Source: Dehalococcoidia bacterium (GTDB lineage: Bacteria; Chloroflexota; Dehalococcoidia; Lucifugimonadales; JAGWBF01). Taken from it: 64,000 bases of DNA. Of the stretch, positions 3,712 through 52,890 are shown piece by piece (position 1 is the stretch's first letter; every line of letters starts with the position of its first letter). The stretch is from positions 1,787,672 to 1,851,671 of the forward strand of contig OZ244780.1 in NCBI GenBank assembly GCA_965219565.1, written 5' to 3'. Made by a program: the position numbers and the translations under genes. The notes beneath the pieces are model-generated. The model made no database searches and had not been told where the DNA came from. It saw only the letters and a program-made list of their open reading frames with translations.

Positions 3712-4977
3712 ATGACCGACTGTCAGACCGACAATTTTCTCAGCCCCTACCGAGTCCTGGACCTCAGCGACGAGCGGGGGATCCTGTGCGGCAAGATCCT
3801 TGCCGACCTGGGGGCCGACGTAGTCCAGATAGAACCTCCAGCGGGAAGCTCCGCCCGGCTTCGAGGGCCTTTCTACAAGAACGAACCTGGGCCTGAAAAC
3901 AGCCTGTTCTGGTGGGCTTATTCCGCCGGAAAGCGCAGCGTCACGCTGGACATCGCCAAGCCGCAAGGGGCGGAGCTGGTCAAACGGCTGGTGAAGAACG
4001 CCCACTTCCTGGTTGAGTCCTATCACCCCGGCTACATGGAGTCCCTTGGGCTGGGCTATTCCGACCTAGAGGCCCTCAACCCGGGCTTGGTAATGGTTTC
4101 CATTACGTCTTTTGGCCAGAAGGGGCCCTACGGGGATTACAAAGGTTCGGACATCGTGGGCATGGCGCTTGGAGGGTTCATGCACCTGACGGGCGACCAG
4201 GACAGGCCCCCGCTCAGGATAAGCCACCCCCAGTTCTACCTTCACGGAGCTTCCGCCGGGGCGCTTGGGGCCATGCTTGCCCACACCCACAGGGCGGCGA
4301 CGGGCGAAGGCCAACACGTGGACGTTTCCTGCCAGCAGGCCGCCGCCAAGACCCTGGCCCACGCCCCCCAGTTCTGGGATGCCCAGGGAGTTGTTCTAAG
4401 GCGCATGGGGCCGTACAGGCCCACCGCCGGAGACTCGATGGTGAGGGTCAACTGGAAATGTAAAGACGGCTTCGTCAACTTCATGCCACAGGGCGGCGGG
4501 CCGGGTGTGTCTGCCAGCACCCGCGCTATGCTGGCCTGGATGAGAGAAGAAGACATGGGAAGCGACTCGTTGGACGCCGTTAGATGGGAACAGATGCACT
4601 ATTCCGAAGTGCCCGGCGACGTTATGAGGCAAGGGGTCGTAGACTTTGGCCGCTTCATCGAGACCAAGACCAAGGATGAGCTTATCGCAGAAAGCAGGAA
4701 CCGACGCATAATTCTGTTTCCCCTCAACACCCACGAAGACATCCTTGAGTACCCACAATTGAGCGAGAGGGACTACTTCGTCTCCCTCCCCCACCCAGAA
4801 CTTGGAACATCGGTGAAGTATCCGGGCCGTTTCATATTGGACGGAGTCGCTGACCGCGTAGGTCCGCGCAGCCGCGCGCCGCTGTTGGGAGAGCACAACA
4901 GTGAGATATACGGCGGTGAGCTTGGGATGGCGGACGACGAAATCGCATCTCTGAAGGGAAGCGGGATAATCCGATGA
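3712..4977 (+). CDS. Family III CoA-transferase (CaiB/BaiF family), catalytic Asp present
   Basis: N-terminal YRVLDLSDERGILCGKILADLGADVVQIEPP. The active-site region is GSD147IVGMALGG...LTG. Confidence 0.9.
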   Translation: MTDCQTDNFLSPYRVLDLSDERGILCGKILADLGADVVQIEPPAGSSARLRGPFYKNEPGPENSLFWWAYSAGKRSVTLDIAKPQGAELVKRLVKNAHFLVESYHPGYMESLGLGYSDLEALNPGLVMVSITSFGQKGPYGDYKGSDIVGMALGGFMHLTGDQDRPPLRISHPQFYLHGASAGALGAMLAHTHRAATGEGQHVDVSCQQAAAKTLAHAPQFWDAQGVVLRRMGPYRPTAGDSMVRVNWKCKDGFVNFMPQGGGPGVSASTRAMLAWMREEDMGSDSLDAVRWEQMHYSEVPGDVMRQGVVDFGRFIETKTKDELIAESRNRRIILFPLNTHEDILEYPQLSERDYFVSLPHPELGTSVKYPGRFILDGVADRVGPRSRAPLLGEHNSEIYGGELGMADDEIASLKGSGIIR

Positions 4978-6194
4978 CGGTGAAACCCCTTGAAGGGCTG
5001 AAAATCTTGGACTTCTGCTGGGTGGTGGCAGGGCCGCTGACCACCAAGTACCTGGCCGAATACGGGGCCGACGTCATCCGCGTGGAGACGACAAAAAGGC
5101 CGGAGGTTCTTCGCAGGGGCGCGCCCTTCAAGGACGGTATATCCGGCATTAATCGGAGCGAGTATTTCGGCAACTACAACGTGGGGAAATACGGCGTAAC
5201 CATCGACATGCAGAATCCCAGGGCAAGGGAGCTGGTGCTGAGAATCGCCCAATGGGCCGATGTGATAACCGAGAACTTCACGCCGGGGACCTTGGAAAAG
5301 TGGGAACTGGGCTATGAGGACCTGAAGAAGGCCAACGAGGGCATTATCCTGTTCAGTTCGTCCATGCTGGGACGGGGAGGCTCGATGTCCTCCCAGCCCG
5401 GTTTCGGTCCGGTGCTGGCGTCTCTGTCCGGCATGACCTATCTAACCGGCTGGCCCGATAGGGAACCCGTCAATCCCTATGGCGCCTATACCGACTTCAT
5501 CATCCCGCGCTTTGCCGTGCCGGCGATACTGGCCGCATGGGACTACAAAAAGCGCACCGGCCAGGGGACCCACCTGGACCTTTCCCAACTGGAAGCGTCG
5601 GTGCAGTTCTCCGCGCCGTTGGTCTTGGACTACACCGTCAACGGCGCCATAAACGAGCGTCAGGGCAACCGCGACCCCGGCGCCGCACCCCACGGGACCT
5701 ACCCCTGTAAGGGCGAAGACCGATGGATAGCCATCGCCTGTGACTCCGAAGAGGCCTGGCAAGGGCTGAGGTCCCTGGCCTGTCCGTTGGGTTCAGGATG
5801 GGCCTACGACGAGCGCTTCTCAACCCTGGAGGGCCGAAAAGCGGCTGAAGACGAGTTGGACGAGCTTGTAGGCCAATGGACCCAGCAATGGGACTCACGA
5901 GAGTTGATGGACAAACTGCAGGCGGCTGGAACTCCGGCGGGGGCCGTGAATGATTGCCGCGACTTGTTCGACGATGCCCAGTTGTCCTACAGGGGCCACT
6001 TCCAGTTTCCTGTGCATCCTGAAATCGGGCCATACGCGGCGTCCCGCAGCGAGATGGACCTGTCCAAGACGCCCGGCGCCATCGACCGACCGGCCCCGCT
6101 AATAGGAGAGCACAACGAGTTCGCCCTGAAAGGGCTAGTCGGCCTGTCAGATGAAGAGTACCGCTCCCTGGAGGAGGACGGAGTCCTGACGTAG
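4974..6194 (+). CDS. Family III CoA-transferase paralogue, putative catalytic Asp position is Gly
   Basis: ATGA overlap with the upstream gene. N-terminal LKILDFCWVVAGPLTTKYLAEYGADVIRVE. The aligned active-site region reads GFG145PVLASLSG...LTG. Confidence 0.9.
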   Translation: MTVKPLEGLKILDFCWVVAGPLTTKYLAEYGADVIRVETTKRPEVLRRGAPFKDGISGINRSEYFGNYNVGKYGVTIDMQNPRARELVLRIAQWADVITENFTPGTLEKWELGYEDLKKANEGIILFSSSMLGRGGSMSSQPGFGPVLASLSGMTYLTGWPDREPVNPYGAYTDFIIPRFAVPAILAAWDYKKRTGQGTHLDLSQLEASVQFSAPLVLDYTVNGAINERQGNRDPGAAPHGTYPCKGEDRWIAIACDSEEAWQGLRSLACPLGSGWAYDERFSTLEGRKAAEDELDELVGQWTQQWDSRELMDKLQAAGTPAGAVNDCRDLFDDAQLSYRGHFQFPVHPEIGPYAASRSEMDLSKTPGAIDRPAPLIGEHNEFALKGLVGLSDEEYRSLEEDGVLT

Positions 6195-12691: not shown

Positions 12692-13996
12692 ATGGCGCTC
12701 AAGGACCTTAGCCATAATGTGACCAGGCCGGGGATGAGGCCAGGCGATCCGGACATAGAGATTCCGGTAGCCGCCGACTTGGTAACGGTTCCCGGTGTTC
12801 CTCTGCGCGAGGAGGACCTGAACTACTACGGCAGGGAAGAGCCTCTGGACGCCCTGTCTATATTCGAGAGTTCCTCTTTCGAATGGCTGCGCCCGCTCCG
12901 CCGCGCCAAGTCCGAAGACTCTATACGGCAGACGGTCTATTTCGAGAAGATCATGACGCCGTTGGCCAAGTGGATTAAGGACAGCGGAGAATTGCCGCCC
13001 ACCGCCGAGCCTAGCGGGGAGGACGTGGGTGACCTGATTAAGGCCAAGGCCAGGGAACTGGGCAACGTAGAGGTGGGTTTCACCCCCGTTGACAGGCGGT
13101 ACATCTACCAAAGCAAGATGGCCGACTACGATGCAGAGTTGCCCCACGCCATCTGCATAGCCATGGACCAGGACTATGAGATGACCTGGAAGACCCCGGG
13201 GCTTGCGTCCGAGTGGACCCATGATGACGTATACGAACGTCAAGGGTCGTTGGCTCAAGAATTGGTCGCCTACCTGAACTCCCTGGGCTACAGGGGTCAG
13301 GTCTCGCAGCCGTCGGTGGCCTACGGGCCAGCCATGCCGCTGTTCGTTCAGGCCGGACTGGGACAGGTTGGAGCCAACGGCATTCTCATGTCTCCCCACA
13401 TGGGACCTTGGATCAGGCTCCAGACCATATTCACCGATGCCAAGCTCACCTATGATCACCCGGTGGACTACGGGATTCACGCCTTCTGCCAGATATGCCA
13501 GGTGTGCACCAACCGTTGCCCAGGCAGGGCCCTTTCCAGAGAGAAGGTCTGGTTCCGAGGCGCCCACAAGAACAAGGTGGCTTTCCGGCGCTGCCAGCCC
13601 ATGGTGGCCCGTTACTCCAGCTGCGGCGTATGCCAGCGCGTGTGCCCTATCGGGGCGTACGGCATGAAGCCCGTCATGGACCACTACATGGAGACCGGTG
13701 AGGTCCTGGGCAAGGGCACCCATGACCTGGAAGGTTACTACCTGCCCGGCAAGGGCTACTACGGCCCCGGCGAGCTTCCCACCTTCGACAAGGAGACCTT
13801 CAACATGCCCAAGGGCAGGACTGAAGACTGGCTCCTAATAGAGTTCCGCGACAGGCTCATCGAAACCAAGGAAGATGAATCCATTGACCGCGACGAAATG
13901 TGGGAAGAGTTCCGCGAAAAGGTGGAAGAGTCCTTCAACCGGAGCTTCGTGTCCGAGATGGCCATGGACACCGGCGGTGAATTGGGCGGCGTGTAA
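12692..13996 (+). CDS. Reductive dehalogenase / QueG superfamily Fe-S protein (RdhA-like), no Tat signal
   Basis: AAGGAGG RBS. Two cluster motifs: C266-x2-C-x2-C-x3-CP and C301-x9-C-x2-C-x3-CP. The upstream SPHMGPWIRLQTIFTDAKLTYDHPVDYGIHAFC is typical of RdhA/QueG. About 110 aa of acidic C-terminal tail. Confidence 0.75.
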   Translation: MALKDLSHNVTRPGMRPGDPDIEIPVAADLVTVPGVPLREEDLNYYGREEPLDALSIFESSSFEWLRPLRRAKSEDSIRQTVYFEKIMTPLAKWIKDSGELPPTAEPSGEDVGDLIKAKARELGNVEVGFTPVDRRYIYQSKMADYDAELPHAICIAMDQDYEMTWKTPGLASEWTHDDVYERQGSLAQELVAYLNSLGYRGQVSQPSVAYGPAMPLFVQAGLGQVGANGILMSPHMGPWIRLQTIFTDAKLTYDHPVDYGIHAFCQICQVCTNRCPGRALSREKVWFRGAHKNKVAFRRCQPMVARYSSCGVCQRVCPIGAYGMKPVMDHYMETGEVLGKGTHDLEGYYLPGKGYYGPGELPTFDKETFNMPKGRTEDWLLIEFRDRLIETKEDESIDRDEMWEEFREKVEESFNRSFVSEMAMDTGGELGGV

Positions 13997-38284: not shown

Positions 38285-38941
38285 ATGAACGTTAGAATAC
38301 GGCCGTTGACGCCTCAGGACATCAAGCAGGTGTCCCTCATTGAGCGGGAGGCTTTTCCAACCCTTTGGCCTCCGACCAGGCTCCGGAATGAGCTGGACAA
38401 CAAGGCCGCACGCTATCTGGTGGCCTATGAGCCAGGACCTCTAGCAGAATCCGCCGCCGCCGCAACTCCTACCTTGAGGTTCGGTCTGTTACAGAGGGCA
38501 TGGGAGTTCATCAAGGACATCACCCTGGGCGCCGACCCAGACGACTCCACCAATGACACCATTCTGGGGTTTGTGGGTATAAGGCTCATCGTTGATGAGG
38601 CCCACATTACGGGCATTGCCGTTTCCGAGTCTCACAGAGGTCAGTCTCTAGGCGAGCTTCTTATCGTGGGTTCGATAGACCTGGCGCTGATGGAGAAGTC
38701 CTCCGTTGTCACGTTGGAAGCGCGGGTCTCCAACAATGTGGCCCAGTCCCTCTATGAGAAATACGGCTTCCAGCGGATGGGAGTGAGGAAGCGGTACTAC
38801 TCCGACAACGGAGAAGACGCCGTAATCATGACGACCCGCCTGATACACAGCTCCGAGTACCAGCAGATATTCAAGGGGCTTAAAGCGGCCTTGGAGGAGC
38901 GAAAGGGCGAAATCCGCATCCAACTGCCGCTGTCCGCCTGA
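38285..38941 (+). CDS. rimI: Ribosomal-protein-alanine N-acetyltransferase-like GNAT (with about 44-aa internal insertion and C-terminal extension)
   Basis: IRPLTPQDIKQVSLIEREAFP and the acetyl-CoA motif HRGQSLG. ATG 38285 was preferred because the first 56 ORF-track codons overlap the yebC start region. Confidence 0.8.
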   Translation: MNVRIRPLTPQDIKQVSLIEREAFPTLWPPTRLRNELDNKAARYLVAYEPGPLAESAAAATPTLRFGLLQRAWEFIKDITLGADPDDSTNDTILGFVGIRLIVDEAHITGIAVSESHRGQSLGELLIVGSIDLALMEKSSVVTLEARVSNNVAQSLYEKYGFQRMGVRKRYYSDNGEDAVIMTTRLIHSSEYQQIFKGLKAALEERKGEIRIQLPLSA

Positions 38942-38971
38942 TGACTGCCAATACCCCTGGAGTCCAAGCAA

Positions 38972-39370
38972 TCATCCATTGAGCTTGGGGCGGAGTGCTC
39001 CAATCGCGAAATGCTCGGCCCATTTGATGTCCATGTTAAGTTCGGCGCTGGTCATGTAACGTATTACGACGTTGTCCTTAATCCAGTCCCTACTCTCACT
39101 TTTGTCGCGATAGTACCCCTTCTTCACAAGTGTTTCCGCAAGGTCAGACGAAGTAGTGCCGGCCCAATGGTCTTTCATCCGGCTTCTAATTCCTTTACGG
39201 CTCTGACCAATATACAGTGCTTCCTCCACACGGTTTGAGAATACATAGATTCCACTTTCGTCAGGGACCTCATACATCGTCCCGCCACTGAATCGAATCT
39301 GAGGCTTTTCCAACAGACCTTTCACCATACTGTGTCCTTCTTCGATGTTCGCGCCTAGGTTGTTTGCCAT
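38972..39370 (-). CDS. Stand-alone GIY-YIG domain nuclease-like protein
   Basis: GIYVFSNRVEEALYIGQS...R...H motif series. AGGAGG RBS. Locally lower GC than the flanks. Confidence 0.75.
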   Translation of the reverse strand: MANNLGANIEEGHSMVKGLLEKPQIRFSGGTMYEVPDESGIYVFSNRVEEALYIGQSRKGIRSRMKDHWAGTTSSDLAETLVKKGYYRDKSESRDWIKDNVVIRYMTSAELNMDIKWAEHFAIGALRPKLNG

Positions 39371-39526
39371 TGCAGTCCTCCTAATTTTTTATATGCCGTT
39401 CATTCTTCCATTATGGGTCTGTATTTCGTTGCGGTAAATTGCTTTACCTCCCCTACACTATCCCTACACTCCCCCTTTGGCTTCTGCTCAGTCGGTTTTC
39501 AGGTAAAGAGGCAAGAAGGGCAATAG

Positions 39527-39555
39527 TTGACCCGCCCTTGGGGCATTGGTAGAAT
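39527..39555 (+). promoter_or_regulatory. Promoter candidate for the coaE-led operon
   Basis: TTGACC-N17-TAGAAT, about 60 nt upstream of ATG 39616. Confidence 0.4.
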
Positions 39556-39615
39556 ACCGCCATGCTTTGGCCACGCCCGAAGCTGCCTGCATGGCATCTC
39601 CGTTAAGGTTCATTG

Positions 39616-40227
39616 ATGCTCGTAATCGGCCTCACCGGCGGCATAGGGACAGGTAAGAGTCTGGTCGCACACATGCTTGGAGAGCTTGGGGCAGAGATTA
39701 TAGACGCAGACCGCATTGGCCACGAGGCCTATACGCCCCACACTCCAGTCTGGAAAGAAGTGGTGGAGGCCTTTGGCGAGGACATCCTCCAGACGAGCGG
39801 TGAGATCGACCGCAAACGGCTGGGTTCCATTGTGTTCAGTGACCCTAAGGAGTTGGCAAGGCTGAACTCCATCATGCACCCCCGCATGGCGGAGATGATT
39901 CACAAGCGGGTCATAGAGTTGGAAGGCCAGGGCGCCGATACAGTGGTCGTCGAGGCGGCTGTTTTGGTGGAAGCCGGGTGGGACAAGTTGCCCTGGGTCG
40001 ATGAGGTGTGGGTTACCAGGTCCGACGAGGAGCAGGTTGTACAGCGGATCAAGGAACGCAACAACCTTCCCGACGAAGAGATAAGGAAACGGATCGGGTC
40101 CCAACTCCCATTCGAGGAGAGGTCTCGAAACGCGCAGGTCGTGGTCGACAATTCGGGGGCTATAGACGGTCTGAAGAAGTCCGTCGAGTCCATCTGGGAA
40201 AGCAGAGTGAAAGGTAAGGTCTCATAG
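39616..40227 (+). CDS. coaE: Dephospho-CoA kinase
   Basis: [16 protein letters not shown]-loop N-terminus. ATG 39616 lies one codon inside ORF-track start 39613. Confidence 0.9.
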
Positions 40228-40229
40228 GT

Positions 40230-41132
40230 ATGGCACAAGCCGCCCAGGATACATACTTGGAAGTTGACATTGAGGAGTACGTCATAGCGTACGAGCCTTA
40301 TTTCGCTCCCGTCGGCGATGAAATAGAGCTGTTCGAAGCCGCTTACCACCAGCAGCTGCCGGTGCTGCTGAAAGGGCCGACAGGCTGCGGAAAGACCCGG
40401 TTCATCGAATATATGTCCTGGCGTCTCGGTCGCCCGCTCACTGTGGTGAAGAAGAAGGGCAAGTCCGCACAGCCTCAGGCACAGGTCAACGGCAGGAAGG
40501 TCCCCCTTATAACAATTGCCTGTCACGAGGACTTGACCGCCAGCGACCTCGTTGGACGTTACCTGCTAGAGCCGGACGGCACCCGCTGGATGGACGGCCC
40601 GCTGACCAAGGCGGTCAAGGCTGGAGCCATCTGCTACCTCGACGAAATCGTAGAGGCGCGGAAGGATACAACCGTGCTTATACACCCCCTCACAGACCAC
40701 CGGCGCGCGCTGCCCGTGGACAAGAAGGGGCAAATCATAGAGGCGCACAACCAGTTCCTGCTGGTCATCTCCTACAACCCGGGATACCAGAGCGCTCTGA
40801 AGGACCTGAAGCACTCGACCCGGCAGAGGTTCGTGGCAATCGAGTTCGACTACCCGCCCAAGGAGATTGAGCGGGAGGTGATTCAGAAGGAGAGCGGATG
40901 CTCTCTGGAGCACGCGGAGGCCCTCGCCAAGCTGGGCGAGAAAGTCCGGAACCTGAAAGACCACGGACTTCAAGAGGGGGCCAGCACCAGGCTGCTCATA
41001 TACGCCGGCAAGCTGATGGCCCAGGGAATCGCACCCAGGCGCGCCTGCCAGGTATCGGTCGTGTGGGCCCTCACGGACGACCAGGAAATACAGAAGAGTG
41101 TAGAAGAAGTGGCGTCCTCCATATTCGAGTAG
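40230..41132 (+). CDS. CbbQ/NirQ/NorQ-family MoxR-type AAA+ ATPase
   Basis: The product carries [32 protein letters not shown] (Walker A). It also has [27 protein letters not shown] (Walker B) and [24 protein letters not shown]. The ATG lies 2 nt after the coaE stop. Confidence 0.9.
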
Positions 41133-41162
41133 ACGCCGCCGACATGGACAGGTAAGACCCCG

Positions 41163-41774
41163 GTGTCAATCGAAACTTACGACAGATCATCGAAGATTTT
41201 TCAAGCGCTTCGTCTCTCCCTGTCCGCCCGCGAAAAAGCCTCCGTCCCCTCCGACGGACTCAGACCCGCCGCTGTTCTGATTCTCCTGTACAACAAATCG
41301 GGAGAACCCCACATACTGCTGAACAAACGATCTCAGCAGGTGGAACACCACAAGGGGGAGATTTCTTTCCCAGGCGGCGGCCGGGACGCGGAGGACGTTG
41401 ACTTCCTGGCCACTGCTTTGAGGGAAACCTACGAAGAGATGGGGGTCGAACCCAAGGACGTCACAATCATCGGAGAGCTGGACGACGTTGTAACCAGGTC
41501 GGATTTCTGTGTGCGGGTGTATGTCGGGACGATACCCTATCCCTACCCGTTCAAACCCTATGCACGGGAAGTCGCCGAGGTCCTGGAAGTCCCCATGAAC
41601 GTCCTGCTGGACCGGGCCAACTGGAGGGAAGAGGCCCGCTTGACGGACTGGGCATTGCAAAAGTCATACAGCTACGCGTATAAAGAGCATCTGGTCTACG
41701 GCGCTACCGCAATGATGGTCAGACAGCTGATCGACGTATATTCGAGCCTGGAGACGGTCCGGAGAGGAAGTTGA
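41163..41774 (+). CDS. NUDIX hydrolase, CoA pyrophosphatase-like
   Basis: Contains LLNKRSQQVEHHKGEISFPGGG (CoA-type upstream motif) and the Nudix box GGGRDAEDVDFLATALRETYEEMGV. Confidence 0.85.
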   Translation: MSIETYDRSSKIFQALRLSLSAREKASVPSDGLRPAAVLILLYNKSGEPHILLNKRSQQVEHHKGEISFPGGGRDAEDVDFLATALRETYEEMGVEPKDVTIIGELDDVVTRSDFCVRVYVGTIPYPYPFKPYAREVAEVLEVPMNVLLDRANWREEARLTDWALQKSYSYAYKEHLVYGATAMMVRQLIDVYSSLETVRRGS

Positions 41775-41775
41775 C

Positions 41776-44700
41776 TTGTCGGAGTCCAATGCAAAACCAA
41801 CCTTGAGTCAGTTGGAACGGGAGCTTGGTAAGCTTCCCTCTGTAGTGCTCCAGGAGTATGAGGCCGCCAAAGAGAAGGTTTCCGCAGCTTTCAACGAGGA
41901 CGAGCTCTTTTTGTGGAGTAAAGAAGGGCTGTCCATAGCCAACCAGACCGTCAGGTCGTGGGAGGTGGCGGCGGAATACTTCAAGTCGGCGCCCGACGTT
42001 GCCGCGTACCTGCCCTTCTCGTCCTTTATGCAGTGGGCGCGGTGCGGCTCCTATCTCGCTCAGGACTCGCCCACACTAGCCGTCGCCTTCTTCAAGGCCA
42101 GCCCGGACATCGTTCCCGCCCTCAGGCCCCAGCACATACCCCGTTGGGCGGGACTGGGACGCAGCCTATACAAAGGCACCTGGAAGTCGTCGACCTTGGC
42201 CGGACGCTTTTACGAGATCAGCCCACACCTTATCAAGAGTCTGCCCTTCTGGGAAGTGGAGGTGTTCGCCGCCTTGGTGGAGGCCGTGTCCCTCAAGTCG
42301 TACGACATGGCGTCGGAATGCCTGACCCTGGGCCAGGACATACTCCCCCAAATGGGCAGGGAACGTGAAACGTTCCTATCCATGGCCAGAGAGCTGACAG
42401 AGGCCAACTGGCGGGAGGTAAAAGCCACCTTAGAGACGTGCGGCAGGGCGCTTCCGGGCATAGACAGCGCCCAGAAGAGCCGCTTCCTACGACTGACTGA
42501 ACGGCTGGTGAAGTCGGGCCAGAAAGACGTCCCGACCTTTCTGTCCGACGGCGCAAGGGCCCTGCAGCAGGTCAACAGTTCCTCCCAGCGTTACATAATC
42601 GACCTGGCCGAGACTCTGATGGGCGTGTCGCCTCAGGCCGTCGCGCCGTTCCTCGCCAACCTGGATATGGTGTTGACCCGTGTGACCTTGAACCAGCTGG
42701 AAATCTGGTTCCAGCGGGGCATGGCCGTGCTCAAGGAAAACCCCGACGGAGGGATAGCCTACTTCAAAGTGGAATCCAGCACGTCAGAGAACCTGCTGGA
42801 ATCGCTGTCCTCCTCGATGGAATTGGAGAAGGTAAAGCCCGTCATCAGGCTGTACTGCTGCGCCCTGTCGGGTTCGTCCATCGAGGTGCAGAACAGCAAG
42901 GAGCTGGCTAACAAGAGTATCGGATGGGTTTCCGAGTCGGCGGCCACCACCGAGGGGACCAAAGTGTTCCTGCCCCCCGTCGTCGACAGGTATTCGACCA
43001 AGGACAACAACTTCGGATGGTTCAAGGTGGTCTCCACTCACCAGGTGGCTCACCTGGAGTTCGGCAGCTTCCTGTTCGAATATGACCGTCCTTCCGCCCT
43101 GTTCGACGACCGCCGTCCCGGCGAGGAGGACAGAAGAGAGGCGGCATTGACGGCAGCCAATGCTGCCGCCCCGCCGATAGACCCAGTGTCCTCAGCCTTT
43201 GCCCAGCTTCAGGAAGACCTGGGTGAATCATCCAGCGCCGAGCGGGGATATCTAACGGACATGGGCCGGTTCTTCCACCTCTTCGACGACCGGAGGCTGG
43301 CTCTGGACGTCTTCACAATCCTGGAAGACGGCCGCTTGGACTTTCGGGTCAAGGTGGAGTACCCGGGCATAGTGAAACACTACCGGACCGTCCAGCTGGA
43401 CTCCCGAGAGGAGAGGCCCCCCATAGACGAACTGCCCCTGTTGCAGGGCATGGTAGAGATTCTCGTCCGGTTCAGCCTTGATCAGTTCCGCGGACTCCCC
43501 GTGCCCCAGGGCTACGAGAAAACGGCGCGCGTGTTGTCCAAGCTGTTCAGGAGGCTGCTGAACGTCACGGCCACCGTTGAAGACACGGGGGAGGCGACGC
43601 TCCGGGTCTACGACATCCTGTCCAAGCTTCCCAATGAGGAAGTGCCCCCTGAGGACTACTCGCCCCAGGACCTGGACGGCCCTGAGGAGTATTCCGAAGA
43701 GGAGATGCTGGAGCTGATGCAGGAGCTCCAGTCGGGCCAGCCCACGCCCCAAAGCGGCGAGGAGGAAGAGCAGAACTATGAGTCACCCCAGGAAGTGGAA
43801 TACCGGGGAGACTTCAAACCGGAGCTTGTCCAACTCCTCAACAAGCTGCGAGTCGATAAGTCCCAACAGGGGGACGGCCAGACTGAGCCAATAACCCAGG
43901 AGATGCTGGAAGAGCTTCTCAAAGACAACCCGGAACTTGAAATGAGCGCCGAACAGGGCCAGATTCAGACAACGATGGGACTTTTCGTTCAAAACCTCAT
44001 GAAGGAGGCCGGAGTGCCGCCGCCCGCAGACCCCGGCCAAGGTCAGGGCCAGTTCGTCCACGAGCAGGAGCAGGGAGGGCCGTTGGAGGCCAAGGAGCCC
44101 CGTTCCCAGGTCTACGACGAATGGGACTTCAGAGCCGACGACTACAAGCCCAAGTGGTGCATCGTGCGGGAGAAGGAAGTCGAGGAGGGAGACATAGGCT
44201 TCTTCAACGACACCATCCGCAACTACTCCTCACTGTCGTCTGACATCCGGCGCCAGTTCGAGATGGTCATGCCCGAAAGTTTCCGCAAGGAGCGGCGGGT
44301 CATCGACGGCGAGGACTTGGACCTGGATGCTGTCATCGAGGCCCAGGTGGACCGCCGGAGCGGCATCACTCCCAACGACAAGGTGTGGTGGCGCCGTAAC
44401 AAGATGGAGCGGGACGTGGCAGTGGTATTCCTGCTGGATATGAGCGCTTCCACGGCTGAGGCCATCGACGAGGGCAGGGCGGGTCCAGACGACCACGATG
44501 CCCCCGACGACCCGGTGGAGTACATGATGTGGCTCCGGTCGCGCCGCGAGGGCCTGGTGCGCAGGCAATACAAGCGAATCATCGACTTGGAAAAGGAGAG
44601 CACGGCCCTGCTTCTCCAGGCCTTGGAGACCATAGGCGACACATACGGCATCTACGGCTTCTCCGGGTACGGCAGGGAGAACGTGGAATACTACGTCATC

Positions 44701-45099
44701 AAGGACATCGACGAGATTCTCCACGACCGGGTGAAGAGGCGCATCGACAAAATCACGCCCATGCACGCCACTCGCATGGGCCCCGCTATACGCCACGCCA
44801 CTGCCAAGCTGGACGCCCAGGACGCCAAGACCAAGATTCTCTTCCTCATCAGCGACGGAAGGCCCCAGGACAGGGGCTACAGCCGCGAGGGCGTAGAGAA
44901 GGAATATGCCGTCCATGACACCCACATGGCCCTTGTGGAAGCCAAGCGAAAGGCGGTGGTCCCCTTCTGCCTGACGGTGGACAAGTCGGGCCACGACTAC
45001 CTGAAGACCATGTGCGGCGACATGAGCTATGAGGTTTTGGACAACATCTGGTCCCTGCCCCAAAGGCTCCCCCAGCTATACCGCATGCTCACGACGTAG
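41776..45099 (+). CDS. Giant NorD/CbbO-like protein with C-terminal von Willebrand factor A domain
   Basis: TTG start 1 nt after the NUDIX stop. The C-terminal module has YDEWDFRADDYKPKWC, the MIDAS motif VVFLLDMSAST, GFSGYGRENV, ATRMGPAIRHA and LISDGRPQD. About 700 aa of helical N-region plus an acidic/Gln-rich linker. Confidence 0.85.
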   Translation: MSESNAKPTLSQLERELGKLPSVVLQEYEAAKEKVSAAFNEDELFLWSKEGLSIANQTVRSWEVAAEYFKSAPDVAAYLPFSSFMQWARCGSYLAQDSPTLAVAFFKASPDIVPALRPQHIPRWAGLGRSLYKGTWKSSTLAGRFYEISPHLIKSLPFWEVEVFAALVEAVSLKSYDMASECLTLGQDILPQMGRERETFLSMARELTEANWREVKATLETCGRALPGIDSAQKSRFLRLTERLVKSGQKDVPTFLSDGARALQQVNSSSQRYIIDLAETLMGVSPQAVAPFLANLDMVLTRVTLNQLEIWFQRGMAVLKENPDGGIAYFKVESSTSENLLESLSSSMELEKVKPVIRLYCCALSGSSIEVQNSKELANKSIGWVSESAATTEGTKVFLPPVVDRYSTKDNNFGWFKVVSTHQVAHLEFGSFLFEYDRPSALFDDRRPGEEDRREAALTAANAAAPPIDPVSSAFAQLQEDLGESSSAERGYLTDMGRFFHLFDDRRLALDVFTILEDGRLDFRVKVEYPGIVKHYRTVQLDSREERPPIDELPLLQGMVEILVRFSLDQFRGLPVPQGYEKTARVLSKLFRRLLNVTATVEDTGEATLRVYDILSKLPNEEVPPEDYSPQDLDGPEEYSEEEMLELMQELQSGQPTPQSGEEEEQNYESPQEVEYRGDFKPELVQLLNKLRVDKSQQGDGQTEPITQEMLEELLKDNPELEMSAEQGQIQTTMGLFVQNLMKEAGVPPPADPGQGQGQFVHEQEQGGPLEAKEPRSQVYDEWDFRADDYKPKWCIVREKEVEEGDIGFFNDTIRNYSSLSSDIRRQFEMVMPESFRKERRVIDGEDLDLDAVIEAQVDRRSGITPNDKVWWRRNKMERDVAVVFLLDMSASTAEAIDEGRAGPDDHDAPDDPVEYMMWLRSRREGLVRRQYKRIIDLEKESTALLLQALETIGDTYGIYGFSGYGRENVEYYVIKDIDEILHDRVKRRIDKITPMHATRMGPAIRHATAKLDAQDAKTKILFLISDGRPQDRGYSREGVEKEYAVHDTHMALVEAKRKAVVPFCLTVDKSGHDYLKTMCGDMSYEVLDNIWSLPQRLPQLYRMLTT

Positions 45100-45141
45100 T
45101 GGAGGCGGATGCGCAAAAATTGGTCTTCAGGCAGGTGTGAC

Positions 45142-45387
45142 ATGCAGACCTATGTTTTTCGAGTCGTGGTAGAGCCGGATGAAGACCGTTGGCAGGCCCA
45201 TTGCCCAGCCCTGGCGAAATATGCGGCTGACACTTGGGGATATACGAAAGAGGAAGCCCTCAAGAACATAAAGGAAGTCATCGAGATGGTCTTGGAGGAG
45301 ATGTCGGAAGAGAATGAGCCGATCCCCCAGGAACCAGAAGACGGAACGCCTATCTCTCCTGAACTTCGGATAGCCGTGTCTGTCTGA
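45142..45387 (+). CDS. hicB: HicB-family antitoxin (short form, no obvious DNA-binding domain)
   Basis: YVFRVVVEPDEDRWQAHCPALAKYAADTWGYTKEEALKNIKEVIEM. ATG 45142 was chosen. Confidence 0.8.
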   Translation: MQTYVFRVVVEPDEDRWQAHCPALAKYAADTWGYTKEEALKNIKEVIEMVLEEMSEENEPIPQEPEDGTPISPELRIAVSV

Positions 45388-45388
45388 T

Positions 45389-45637
45389 TTGAACATCGAC
45401 TGGAGCAGATTACGCACCATAACTGCCCGTGAACTTGTCAGCGCACTTCTTAGGGATGGTTTCGAGTTCCGTAGGCAAAAAGGCAGCCACCAACACTATC
45501 GACATCCCGACGGAAGAAGGGTCACCGTAGCGTTTCACAGTCCGGGAGACACCTTCGCTATCGGCATCCTCAGAACGATGATTCAAGATCGTGCCAAGTG
45601 GACTGTGGCTGATGTGATCCGGTTGGGCCTGTATTAG
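45389..45637 (+). CDS. hicA: HicA-family mRNA interferase toxin
   Basis: ELVSALLRDGFEFRRQKGSHQHYRHPDGRRVTVAFHS. TTG start 1 nt after the hicB stop. Confidence 0.85.
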   Translation: MNIDWSRLRTITARELVSALLRDGFEFRRQKGSHQHYRHPDGRRVTVAFHSPGDTFAIGILRTMIQDRAKWTVADVIRLGLY

Positions 45638-45866
45638 AGCAGTCGACACCCTCGCCGCACCAAAGGGCAGCAGGCGGGATTCTAGAGAGCCTACCCAATC
45701 CGTCATTCCTGCGTAGGCTGGAATCCACTAACAATCCACATTCAGTGGTTGTGCTGGCATATATTGTGCTTACTTAATAGGTCGGTGCGTGGTATTGTAT
45801 ATGGGATAAGGGTATCGTAGGGTTGGAAATAAGTGCCCGAATAATGATTTCAAGTAGGGTTCCATC

Positions 45867-46805
45867 ATGTCTATATTCGATACTTTCGCTAAACGTAAAC
45901 GAAGATCTGAAGACGCAGGTAGGCCAGTAATCTACCGTTACGATGTCCTGCCTAATCAATTCAGGGTACAAGTCGTATACATTTGGCGAAGTGCCATAGG
46001 TGAGCCTTATTATTATCCATCGATACCTATGTCGGTGTGGGAACGAATCCGTGATACCCTCGCGCGAGAAATGGGGAAATTACGCTTAGTGGAGTCAACA
46101 CTTCACTCATCGAATCCAATGGAACACTGTGTACAATTTCTTCTGGCAAGCAAAGATGTAGACCAGGTGTTGAGCCTAATCGAGATCTCTTTCCTGGAGA
46201 TTGATACGACCATGAAGGAAGTGTATCAATATGGCGGTAATCTAAACGGCTCCGACGTTTCACAAACTCCTGATGATGCTATCAAAGAATTGAATTTCCG
46301 TTTTCAGGAACACGCCATAGGTTATCAGTACGAAGCTGGCCGGATTATAAAGATGGATTCCCAGTATATGCATGCGGAGGTTGTAGAACCAGCGATAAGA
46401 CTTCTACATGAGGCTAAGTTTGAAGGGGCCTTGCAGGAATTCATGAATGCTCATAAACACTACAGGGAAAGGAACAACAAAGAAGCGATAACAGAAGCCC
46501 TAAAAGCTTTTGAAAGCACCATGAAGACCATTTGCGACAGGCGAAAGTTGGGCTACTCTCAGAACGACACCGCAAGCAAACTGATAAAGACCCTGTTTGA
46601 CAACCATATCGTTCCTGTAGAGATGGAAAGTCAATTCAACAGCTTGCGATCAACCTTGGAGAGCGGTGTTACCACTCTAAGAAACAAGAAAGGTGGGCAT
46701 GGTCAGGGCAGCGAACCCATGGAAGTCCCTGACTATATCGCCGCTTACGCTCTACATCTCACGGCCTCCAACATAGTGTTCCTCATCAATGCGCACAATT
46801 CATAG
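45867..46805 (+). CDS. AbiJ-like protein: AbiJ-NTD4-type N-terminus plus C-terminal HEPN-like domain (candidate abortive-infection RNase)
   Basis: The N-terminus MSIFDTFAKRKRR...VIYRYDVLPNQFRVQVVYIW resembles STM4504/CBY_0614-type proteins. R272-NKKGG-H278 fits the HEPN Rx4-6H motif. Low-GC gene. Confidence 0.65.
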   Translation: MSIFDTFAKRKRRSEDAGRPVIYRYDVLPNQFRVQVVYIWRSAIGEPYYYPSIPMSVWERIRDTLAREMGKLRLVESTLHSSNPMEHCVQFLLASKDVDQVLSLIEISFLEIDTTMKEVYQYGGNLNGSDVSQTPDDAIKELNFRFQEHAIGYQYEAGRIIKMDSQYMHAEVVEPAIRLLHEAKFEGALQEFMNAHKHYRERNNKEAITEALKAFESTMKTICDRRKLGYSQNDTASKLIKTLFDNHIVPVEMESQFNSLRSTLESGVTTLRNKKGGHGQGSEPMEVPDYIAAYALHLTASNIVFLINAHNS

Positions 46806-51642: not shown

Positions 51643-52890
51643 CTAGAGCATGTTGAGGATGCGCCGCAGTTCTATGAGCGCGGTAGAGGAGGCCCTGCGT
51701 CTGATTACAAGCGACCGGGGCGGCAGGCGAAGAGGAACGTGGGTCACTGATTCTCCCGACACTGGGGGGTGCACCAGGGCTATGTGGACGACGCCGGGCG
51801 GCTGACCGTCCACTTCGTCAGGGCCAAGGACTCCGGTTATGCCGATTCCCACGTCGGCGCCGGACGCCGACGTGCCTGCGGCGGCTTGGGCCATGGCCTG
51901 GGCCGTTTCGGGGCTTACTAGGCCGTGAGCGTCTATGACCTCAGCCGAAACCCCGCTGCTAACGGCGGACTCTCGTCCGTGCACGACGAGGCCCCGACGG
52001 TAATATTGGGCGGTACCGGCTGTCTCGCTGATGCTGGAGGCGAGGACTCCGCCCGTACAATGTTCCATAGTGGACAGGCTCAATCCTTTGGCGACCAGAA
52101 GGTCTCCCACGGCTTGCTGGGGTGTCTCGTCGTCGTAACCCCAGATGTATGGCCCCATAATGGAGAGCAGTCCGTTCTCGGCGGGTTGGAGCAGAGAACG
52201 GGCGGATGCCTCGTCGGAGCCTCTGGCGATGATTCTCAGATGTATACCGTCGGACTTGGAGTAGATTCCCAGATAGGGGTTCTCCTTGCCCAGATAGTCG
52301 GTCACCAACTCATCGACGGCTCCCTCGGACATGCCGGAGGTCTTGATGTTCCGGGTAAGAATCACCTCGCCGCGGCTTATCTTACTCAACCGTGGGACGA
52401 CCTCGGCTTCCCAGATTGCCTGAAGTTCAGCGGGTGGGCCTGGCATCGTCACTATTCGCTTGTCGTTGTGCTCTACCCACCAACCGGGGGCTGTGCCCCG
52501 CGCGTTGGGGATGATTTCCGCCGACGGTATGAGGCTGGCCTGGCGTATGTTGGTGGCCGGCATGTCTCCACCACGCCGCCTGAAATAAGCCCGGAGTTGT
52601 TCGACGATGTCCTCCTGAATCTCCATCTCCTCGCCCAGAGCCGCCGCCACGGCGTCCCGGGTGAGGTCGTCCTGGGTGGGACCCAGTCCTCCTGAGGTGA
52701 ATATGATGTCTGAGCGTTCCAGGCCCCGTTTCACTGCCCCCACGAGGGTTTCTATATCATCCCCTACGAGGGAGACGTGCCTCAGGTTAATGCCCAGAGC
52801 AGGCAGCCTGGAGGCGATGAAGGATGAGTTGGTGTCGACAAGTTCCCCCATCAAAAGCTCGGTGCCGACCGACAATATTTCAGCGTTCAT
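51643..52890 (-). CDS. cinA: CinA family protein (MoCF-like domain plus nicotinamide-nucleotide amidohydrolase PncC domain)
   Basis: MNAEILSVGTELLMGELVDTNS hallmark N-terminus. 415 aa. Confidence 0.9.
   Translation of the reverse strand: MNAEILSVGTELLMGELVDTNSSFIASRLPALGINLRHVSLVGDDIETLVGAVKRGLERSDIIFTSGGLGPTQDDLTRDAVAAALGEEMEIQEDIVEQLRAYFRRRGGDMPATNIRQASLIPSAEIIPNARGTAPGWWVEHNDKRIVTMPGPPAELQAIWEAEVVPRLSKISRGEVILTRNIKTSGMSEGAVDELVTDYLGKENPYLGIYSKSDGIHLRIIARGSDEASARSLLQPAENGLLSIMGPYIWGYDDETPQQAVGDLLVAKGLSLSTMEHCTGGVLASSISETAGTAQYYRRGLVVHGRESAVSSGVSAEVIDAHGLVSPETAQAMAQAAAGTSASGADVGIGITGVLGPDEVDGQPPGVVHIALVHPPVSGESVTHVPLRLPPRSLVIRRRASSTALIELRRILNML

Follow-up and report, generated by a model that had tools for sequence, protein, structure and literature searches.

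Pairs of a MoxR-type AAA+ ATPase and one protein of the von Willebrand factor A (VWA) type are among the least understood AAA+ machines, and few of their clients are known: Rubisco, the nitric oxide reductase cNOR, CobN, CO dehydrogenase, and fumarate reductase or Complex I. Three pairs serve as precedents, NorQD acting on cNOR, CbbQO on Rubisco and CobST on CobN, and according to the NorQD papers MoxR-associated VWA proteins differ in their N-domains, which probably determine client specificity. CbbQ/CbbO-like pairs "not associated with RuBisCO" are also recognised, in reviews and in the CsoCbbQ paper, as forming an uncharacterised class. Here we analyse a four-gene operon, coaE-Q-NUDIX-D, in a 64,000-nucleotide (nt) stretch of the genome of a Dehalococcoidia bacterium (assembly GCA_965219565.1, contig OZ244780.1, positions 1,787,672 to 1,851,671; the whole stretch is hereafter called the window). 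Q is a CbbQ/NorQ-like ATPase and D a long VWA protein of the NorD/CbbO/CobT type, and the genes beside them encode a dephospho-coenzyme A (CoA) kinase and a CoA-type Nudix hydrolase. We read the operon as encoding a variant QD-type remodelling chaperone that is probably tied to CoA or nucleotide-cofactor turnover in Chloroflexota, and give this reading a probability of roughly 55%.

The four genes follow one another on the forward strand with spacers of 2, 30 and 1 nt (coaE/Q, Q/NUDIX and NUDIX/D, respectively) and form a single tightly packed operon behind a conserved promoter-like site (Table 1). An original prediction, made from the letters of the DNA, had described these four genes, their spacers and a TTGACC-N17-TAGAAT promoter, and both the coordinates and the site were reproduced here. 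The site is the top promoter-like element in the 7 kb scanned, where five sites were found and 2.3 +/- 1.5 were expected. Its position is meaningful: an equivalent element, TTGACC-N17/18-TA(G/C)AAT, precedes coaE by 58-156 nt in 13 of the 14 relatives examined. Rfam gave no relevant known RNA element, such as a riboswitch or leader RNA, in 38900-45900.

Q consists of an AAA_5 domain (PF07728, E = 1.2e-28) followed by a CbbQ_C lid (PF08406, 4.3e-29), matches the solved structures of CbbQ (5c3c, 1.3e-105) and NorQ (9qhd_A, 6.2e-90), and is ~70% identical to CbbQ 5c3c across 207 residues. The Walker A (GPTGCGKT, residues 49-56) and Walker B (CYLDE) motifs are aligned and conserved. With this domain pair, this similarity, these ATPase motifs and a VWA partner in the same operon, Q is by profile and alignment an intact MoxR AAA+ ATPase of the CbbQ/NorQ (CGN) class, the class to which the 300-residue protein had been assigned at first reading. 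It differs from CbbQ and NorQ in a 20-residue insertion that follows the Walker A helix and precedes the 'ITVACHED' strand. Among the Qs that partner a long D (L084-L168), nearly all have an insertion at this site, hydrophilic, variable and 4-23 residues long. CbbQ and NorQ are without it, so that the insertion may be a mark of the subfamily, or it may form a regulatory loop.

The partner protein D matches the Pfam VWA models with sub-threshold scores alone. Its residues 779-901 and 934-1105 nevertheless can be aligned to residues 355-643 of the solved NorD chain 9qhd_G (E = 2.7e-38), including the DxSxS of the MIDAS (metal ion-dependent adhesion site). The MIDAS residues are D888-x-S-x-S892, T999 and D1027; a 'YDEWDFR' segment before the VWA domain is a candidate pore finger, and the C-terminal tail holds a conserved LPxLYRxLT. 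This module, the most conserved part of D (80% identity in the clade and 50% family-wide), is interrupted beside the MIDAS loop by a clade-specific insertion of 32 residues. On this alignment D is the VWA adaptor of Q. It retains the ring-coupling elements of the solved NorQD and CobST, namely the finger segment, the MIDAS residues, the C-terminal tail, an N-domain of the CobT/NorD type and a disordered linker, and the NorD/CbbO-type VWA ending that had been proposed for the 1107-residue protein is borne out. The acidic, Gln-rich linker that had also been noticed lies at about residues 621-775, after two N-terminal domains, and is the least conserved segment of D. It parallels the disordered linker of NorD, which according to the NorQD paper is required, its deletion abolishing function.

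The remainder of D had been described as a helical N-region of ~700 residues. The N-region is indeed long, but it is not a single helical region, comprising an α-solenoid (residues 1-330) and a CobT/NorD-type central domain (residues 331-620). A simple sequence search with the first 778 residues found no solved relative. For the solenoid, which is 61% identical in the clade and 24% across the family, a fold search matched designed helical-repeat proteins and nothing else. Because a 717-residue relative without the solenoid (P0225) matches just residues 395-1106 of D, at 35% identity, residues 1-330 are best seen as a family-specific extension, and in its modelled form the solenoid is a candidate client-binding platform.

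The central domain, re-modelled with a deeper alignment, shows a three-stranded sheet, a long helix bearing H422-Q-x-x-H426-x-E428 and a later helix bearing E517-D-x-R520, part of the motif E517-D-x-R520-x-D522. H422, E428, E517 and R520 are invariant across the D family and the second histidine, H426, varies; a Nitrospira-type group of relatives has a complete HEAGH. Profile searches with this domain give the CobT N-domain (9uka_G) as the best match at E = 0.002 and NorD weakly at 0.09-0.17, and the Pfam CobT model (PF06213) is matched by one of 13 D-family members. A CbbO-like protein of 759 residues shares the pattern 'AHxxAHxxF ... EDxRV' with D in local alignments that are non-significant. 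According to the CobSTN preprint, the 'M48C domain' present in CobT_N is bound to the small AAA+ subdomain and is in contact with the client as well; in the NorQD paper, the N-domain of NorD is shown docked on the lid of NorQ. By analogy, it is probably the small AAA+ subdomain of Q on which the central domain of D docks, and these two precedents make a zincin-relic fold plausible, so that the modelled domain may be such a relic. The H-x3-H-x-E and E-D-x-R motif and the β-sheet/helix topology resemble those of zincins, yet we rejected an active zincin (M48-like) peptidase at this place: the catalytic glutamate is replaced by glutamine (H-Q-x-x-H), the second histidine is unconserved family-wide, no peptidase Pfam model matched the domain, and Foldseek gave just a non-significant match to jannalysin (E = 6.7).

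Set beside the described systems, the pair resembles each in part. It has in common with NorQ-NorD (PDB 9qhd and 9qh6) the ATPase class (E = 6e-90), the finger before the VWA domain within a conserved Y-x-E-W-D segment, the MIDAS VWA domain, the C-terminal tail, the disordered linker and, as shown for NorD, docking of an N-domain on the AAA+ lid. It differs in that D is ~470 residues longer than the ~640 residues of NorD, with an extra 330-residue solenoid, a longer acidic linker and the 32-residue insertion by the MIDAS, in that its similarity to the NorD-type N-domain is marginal, and in its operon partners, which are coaE and the Nudix gene and no nor cluster. Q is closest to CbbQ (~70%, E = 1e-105), and the adaptor logic would be of the Q6O1 type; the CbbO-like protein has the VWA module in common with D and, weakly, the solenoid repeat and the histidine pattern. 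Differences from CbbQ-CbbO are again plain, since CbbO is ~760 residues long and encoded beside cbbQ and Rubisco, whereas D is ~350 residues longer, aligns significantly to the CbbO-like protein over the VWA module alone and has no Rubisco nearby. Q also carries its insertion after the Walker A helix, and the Q-long-D pair is kept in the mostly heterotrophic Dehalococcoidia and in other phyla. CobS-CobT-CobN offers the best match to the central domain, and some family members match Pfam CobT; the architecture of CobT (N-domain, disordered linker, VWA), whose shaft sits in the AAA+ pore, is that of D as well. Q, in contrast, is no CobS and carries a CbbQ_C lid; CobN was not observed, and similarity is low outside the common motif. 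The Q-long-D pair is therefore predicted to be a QD-type chaperone that stands outside NorD and CbbO, and probably outside CobT, by its N-domain, length and context. Public labels for long-D family members are 'hypothetical', 'VWA domain-containing' or, by transfer, 'NorD'. Our literature search found no description of the long-D family, or of any MoxR/VWA pair linked to coaE, to a CoA Nudix or to a YfcE-type enzyme, in agreement with the earlier impression that no system of this composition had been described.

The two other genes of the operon belong to CoA metabolism by their family matches. The first protein is, on its scores against Pfam CoaE (1.6e-48) and the TIGR00152 equivalog (168.9 bits, above the cutoff of 65.55), a bona fide dephospho-CoA kinase. 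The Nudix protein contains LLNKRSQQVEHHKGEISFPGG and then G-x5-D-x8-REx2EExG, the CoA-type upstream motif and Nudix box that had been reported for it; the former departs at two positions from the PROSITE-style pattern LLTxR[SA]x3[RK]x3Gx3FPGG, which we take to be the CoA motif. Its top NCBIfam family is the CoA pyrophosphatase NF007980 (1e-32), with a score of 113.3 bits that lies under the 134-bit equivalog cutoff, and its nearest solved relatives are all CoA diphosphatases (1nqy of D. radiodurans at 1.1e-20, AtNUDT11 and NUDT7). Members of that family (D. radiodurans DR1184, NudL, NUDT7 and AtNUDT11) thus share with the window protein the upstream motif and an intact Nudix box and differ from it in respect of the cutoff. 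The two motifs are retained in all ten divergent orthologues examined from the same slot, even at ~28% identity to the window Nudix. Enzymes of this kind convert CoA or acyl-CoA to 3',5'-ADP and (acyl-)phosphopantetheine, and we know of no other CoA-diphosphatase Nudix whose gene separates that of an AAA+ ATPase from that of its VWA partner.

The distribution of the operon was followed by a scan with D of one genome per species, which gave at least 588 confirmed loci; the best 80 of these (45-72% D identity), nearly all labelled Dehalococcoidia, Chloroflexota or SAR202, were taken for operon counts. The presence of coaE, Q and NUDIX was counted by tblastn with the window proteins, and loci were regarded as informative if their upstream sequence extended for 2.5 kb or more, as it did in 73. 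All 73 have coaE-Q-NUDIX-D, at D identities down to 45%, with coaE, Q and NUDIX on the strand of D at offsets of about -2.1, -1.5 and -0.6 kb, and in relatives the genes likewise abut tightly or overlap. The flanks vary: a RimI-type gene was found upstream in just ~28 of the related loci, and the next most persistent neighbours, CinA (convergent and downstream), DUF4340 and ABC-transporter genes, in about half. Because the order is kept in all 73 loci while the flanks vary, the four genes are not neighbours by chance, and the chance adjacency that the original prediction had entertained, with relatives lacking the NUDIX/coaE linkage, fails inside Dehalococcoidia. Relatives of D among the top 120 matches listed are 954-1129 residues long and 61-97% identical, from Dehalococcoidia, SAR202 and Chloroflexi metagenome-assembled genomes (MAGs), and the named members of the D family that we retrieved are all MAGs. 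CinA, which of all genes downstream of D is the most persistent, was located for example at 12845-14110 in L003 and 11366-12613 in L089, and it also occurs at L110 and L117, where D has no adjacent Q.

Farther out in the Chloroflexota, coaE persists beside Q-D through several rearrangements. L089 (39% D identity) retains coaE-Q-NUDIX-D, L152 has Q-NUDIX-D with no coaE upstream, and in L098 coaE follows directly after Q-D. The order coaE-Q-D is found in L101, L111 and L088, the last a 34% Dehalococcoidia relative that reads ETFβ-ETFα-coaE-Q-D and has no Nudix. In a large terrestrial sister clade ('Chloroflexi bacterium RBG_16_68_14' and relatives) a Metallophos_2 protein (E = 1e-25 to 1e-27) fills the slot between Q and D, giving coaE-Q-Metallophos_2-D in L107 and L114 and coaE-Q-cyclophilin-Metallophos-D in L128 and L171. 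This protein is a calcineurin-like phosphodiesterase of the YfcE family (TIGR00040, 63.1 bits, above the cutoff of 56.25). One slot is hence occupied by two unrelated phosphohydrolase folds: the marine/SAR202-type clade has a CoA-type Nudix there, the terrestrial clade a YfcE-type enzyme with or without cyclophilin. The Q-NUDIX-D triad that had been put forward holds inside Dehalococcoidia, but its Nudix is dispensable or replaceable, as the YfcE-type sister clade and the deep lineage with coaE-Q-D illustrate. The cyclophilin is a peptidyl-prolyl isomerase encoded 5' of the YfcE-type gene (L128 8151-9792; L171 4268-5474), and the L171 slot also holds a HicB-like gene and a 350-residue protein without family assignment. 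Electron transfer flavoprotein (ETF) β/α genes lie directly 5' of coaE-Q in three Nudix-less loci (L088 138-4143; L107 3791-5648; L111 6363-8234), in L088 beside an Fe-S/CCG oxidoreductase gene.

Beyond the Chloroflexota the family is wider still. An exhaustive search with D of 50%-identity cluster representatives gave 4200 matches, 1400 of them at E < 1e-30, with full-length proteins of ~1000-1120 residues down to 28% identity and named distant members in Deltaproteobacteria, Spirochaetota, Nitrospira/Nitrospirales and 'Proteobacteria'. In four non-Chloroflexota loci Q lies directly 5' of D with unrelated flanks, and among the arrangements found in a diverse metagenome set, Q-D by itself is the most frequent (23 loci). 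By these comparisons what is conserved at the core is the pair of Q and the long D, a distinct, widespread and old QD subfamily of several phyla. The original prediction spoke of a QD-type machine recruited to an unnamed client; the QD type stands, and "recruited" is better reread as a separate QD subfamily that gained CoA genes in one lineage, since Q and the long D occur together in several phyla and without coaE or NUDIX outside Chloroflexota. The analysis delimits this large subfamily by a solenoid-bearing long adaptor and the Q insertion, and finds it near-universal in the Dehalococcoidia/SAR202 loci sampled and present in other phyla.

Two further observations concern the relatives of D. 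A metallo-β-lactamase-fold hydrolase (Lactamase_B, with weak Apyc1-like matches) is encoded no more than a few kb from D at four loci of different lineages (L087 11132-11797, directly 3' of D in a Spirochaetota locus; L088 8946-9908; L102 5173-5850; L117 16794-17780), and may be a third hydrolase type near the Q-D pair or a product of chance. A shorter VWA subfamily (L132, L136, L138, L142, L143, L147, L151 and L165) aligns to D starting no earlier than about residue 394, lacks a neighbouring Q and is encoded beside paired M16 peptidase genes and a gene for cofactor-independent phosphoglycerate mutase; this looks like a separate uncharacterised context.

The tie to CoA or nucleotide-cofactor turnover is suggested by the coupling of coaE to Q, the CoA-type Nudix, its YfcE-type replacement and the persistence of coaE through rearrangements. 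A possible CoA/acyl-CoA link had been raised in the original prediction, and the conserved linkage with coaE and the CoA-type Nudix strengthens it on the basis of gene order alone. Several points weigh against our reading. We infer the CoA link of Q-D from synteny only; CoA hydrolysis by the Nudix is a predicted substrate assignment, its score being under the NCBIfam cutoff; and the operonic coaE is probably the single essential housekeeping copy, whose placement may be a regulatory convenience. The four non-Chloroflexota Q-D loci contain no coaE, Nudix, Rubisco or NOR gene, and some sister-clade genomes have a full-length D without Q or coaE within 5.7-10 kb upstream (L108, L117 and L170), so the coupling of coaE to Q-D is not obligatory. 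When open reading frames (ORFs) were clustered around 86 diverse loci in search of a client, no recurrent candidate gene adjoined Q-D. The recurrent neighbours were acyl-CoA dehydrogenase (9 loci), enoyl-CoA hydratase (6), acyl-CoA synthetase (5), the metallo-β-lactamase-fold hydrolase (4) and ETF (3), and we rejected them as a clue to the client because they are abundant paralogues found at rates no higher than chance adjacency. Finally, the structure model of full-length D is poor over the VWA module.

If the pair works as its solved relatives do, a Q hexamer would take the finger of D into its pore in a Q6:D1 complex, as in NorQD, CbbQO and CobST, with the central domain and C-terminus of D docked on the Q ring. 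The linker of D would be twisted or stretched as ATP is hydrolysed, and a client protein gripped by the MIDAS face and the N-terminal solenoid would thereby be remodelled. More speculatively, the machine might open the active site of its client and release or exchange a tightly bound nucleotide-type ligand or metal, the slot hydrolase might destroy the released or aberrant CoA-like nucleotide, and CoaE might complete CoA resynthesis. A described arrangement of similar logic is Rubisco activase with CbbY, in which an AAA+ remodeller evicts a tight-binding phosphorylated ligand and a paired hydrolase destroys it. A review covers the eviction step. Drawn out fully, the analogy would make the operon a cofactor-site repair machine for CoA-dependent metabolism, in which Q6:D1 is the motor that pries apart a CoA-binding enzyme that is abundant or essential, or else CoaE, and evicts a damaged or dead-end CoA-derived nucleotide, the slot hydrolase destroys this nucleotide, and CoaE closes the loop of salvage. 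We consider this specific version improbable as it stands; the likeness is one of logic alone. Were it true, it would add a new client class and a physiological role for QD-type chaperones in a very abundant deep-ocean bacterial group. The broader idea, that protein remodelling is tied to CoA or nucleotide-cofactor turnover, is made testable by the coupling of coaE to Q and the replaceable phosphohydrolase slot.

The strongest alternative is that of inherited synteny without functional coupling, in which an orphan Q-D pair shares a transcription unit with a housekeeping coaE and a Nudix gene for reasons of history or expression. The occurrence of Q-D outside Chloroflexota without either gene and the solitary D genes of the sister clade agree with it, as does synteny at the level of the region, seen in about half of the loci, where the downstream genes include CinA, DUF4340 and ABC transporters. 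Under such an account, however, one would have to explain why all 73 loci remain intact at 45-72% D identity despite varying flanks, why coaE stays beside Q-D in four different arrangements, including one downstream of D (L098), why the Nudix is kept where coaE is absent (L152), and why one slot has received two unrelated phosphohydrolase folds. We therefore hold it to be a serious but rather unlikely explanation.

A second alternative, which we think unlikely, is that Q-D is a metal-insertion chaperone like NorQD, CobST and CoxDE, loading metal into the slot Nudix or metallophosphoesterase or into an unlinked metalloenzyme. Apart from CbbQO, the characterised close relatives all aid the maturation of metal centres, chaperone genes often adjoin those of their clients, YfcE-type enzymes require a dinuclear metal site, and the central domain of D keeps an H/H/E triad in the window clade. 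Yet the slot gene is absent from most Q-long-D pairs, the Mg or Mn of Nudix enzymes is in general loosely bound, and we know of no need for a chaperone among them; moreover, the second histidine of the triad is not family-wide, and the fold search for a zincin-like site was non-significant.

Compared with both of these and with our own reading, it is very improbable that the operon encodes an ordinary CbbQO or NorQD activase rearranged away from its Rubisco or cNOR genes. Q is ~70% identical to CbbQ, relatives of D are labelled 'NorD' by the source databases, and some Dehalococcoidia have norBC and form I Rubisco according to a preprint. Against this, the significant alignment of D to NorD and the CbbO-like protein covers the finger and VWA domain alone, and D is 350-470 residues longer than either, which bears out the earlier remark that the VWA subunit appears several hundred residues longer. 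The operon is moreover kept in all 73 loci and Q-D in other phyla, and neither the called genes of the annotated loci nor the recurrent neighbour clusters were noted to include Rubisco or NOR. The claim that no Rubisco or NOR gene lies within the 64 kb was confirmed, in that neither RbcL nor NorB was found among the window ORFs scanned, and no NorB or NorC was found among those ORFs or the called genes of annotated related loci. That the operon is a MoxR-VWA anti-phage or conflict system, a notion prompted by the HicB/HicA and AbiJ_NTD4/DUF7014 genes directly after D and by MoxR-vWA conflict systems, which a published paper reports to exist, can practically be dismissed: PADLOC gave no match for Nudix or D and weak, partial P-loop matches alone for Q, most relatives examined have CinA and no HicAB/AbiJ at that position, the operon is vertically conserved in a housekeeping setting, and we rejected a defence identity on the negative PADLOC results.

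Table 1. Features of the operon and its surroundings in the window (positions in nt from the first letter of the window)
Feature	Position	Strand	Basis or remark
Two tandem family III CoA-transferase genes	3712..6194		CoA_transf_3, 7.5e-70 and 8.5e-96
434-residue ORF	12692..13996		TIGR02486, 4.5e-30
132-residue ORF	38972..39370	-	between RimI-type gene and coaE
Sigma-70-like promoter candidate, TTGACC-N17-(TG)-TAGAAT	39527..39555	+	5' of coaE; consensus scan, 10/12 matches plus upstream TG
coaE, dephospho-CoA kinase, 204 residues from alternative TTG at 39613	39616..40227	+	Pfam CoaE, TIGR00152
Q, CbbQ/NorQ-class MoxR AAA+ ATPase, 300 residues	40230..41132	+	AAA_5 and CbbQ_C; matches to solved CbbQ/NorQ
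Q insertion, residues 72-91	40443..40502	+	not in CbbQ or NorQ
CoA-type Nudix hydrolase, 203 residues	41163..41774	+	NUDIX Pfam, 2e-14
CoA motif and Nudix box, residues 52-95 of the Nudix	41316..41447	+	motif match
D, long NorD/CbbO/CobT-type VWA adaptor, 1107 residues	41776..45099	+	full-length relatives; C-terminal third aligns with NorD
D 1-330, N-terminal α-solenoid	41776..42765	+	~37-residue repeats (W..G..A..SP..A..FF..SP..L); AlphaFold predicted local distance difference test (pLDDT) ~80-92, all helical
D 331-620, CobT/NorD-type central domain	42766..43635	+	domain model pLDDT 91.2, predicted TM-score (pTM) 0.87; CobT profile match
D motif H422 to E428	43039..43059	+	
D motif E517 to D522	43324..43341	+	
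D 621-775, acidic Gln-rich linker	43636..44100	+	low-confidence model; pLDDT < 50 at 655-665 and 678-775
D 776-1107, finger and MIDAS VWA module	44101..45096	+	alignment to NorD 355-643; Foldseek NorD VWA chains, E 5e-6
D insertion beside MIDAS loop, residues 902-933	44479..44574	+	clade-specific
HicB-like/HicA toxin-antitoxin pair	45109..45637		directly after D
AbiJ_NTD4 + DUF7014 protein	45867..46805		after HicAB
CinA gene	51643..52890	-	MoCF_biosynth, KH and PncC-type domains

The genes near the operon in the window are housekeeping genes, with uvrB, ruvA, ruvC and yebC upstream on the opposite strand; a RimI-type acetyltransferase gene lies upstream on the same strand, and HicB/HicA, an AbiJ-like gene and amidohydrolases lie downstream. 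The RimI-type gene is separated from coaE by a 132-residue ORF with a GC content at third codon positions (GC3) of 0.56, for which there was no Pfam match and weak GIY-YIG/UvrC-N-like matches; close relatives keep the RimI-coaE neighbourhood. On the other side, the AbiJ-like gene has a GC3 of just 0.49 and a weak PADLOC match to PDC-S32, and together with the HicAB pair it looks like a small defence/toxin-antitoxin islet inserted 3' of the operon. A lone HicB-like gene stands at the position after D in L003. The CinA family, a member of which is encoded farther downstream, is one of NAD-salvage and nucleotide-pyrophosphatase proteins.

Two observations from more distant parts of the window may be added. 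The 434-residue ORF gave no Pfam match at 1e-5 and matches a reductive dehalogenase subfamily at 105.6 bits, under the cutoff of 160, which is consistent with a Dehalococcoidia origin. The two tandem CoA-transferase genes, ~35 kb upstream of the operon and with no link to it seen, belong to a paralogue family typical of SAR202-type genomes.

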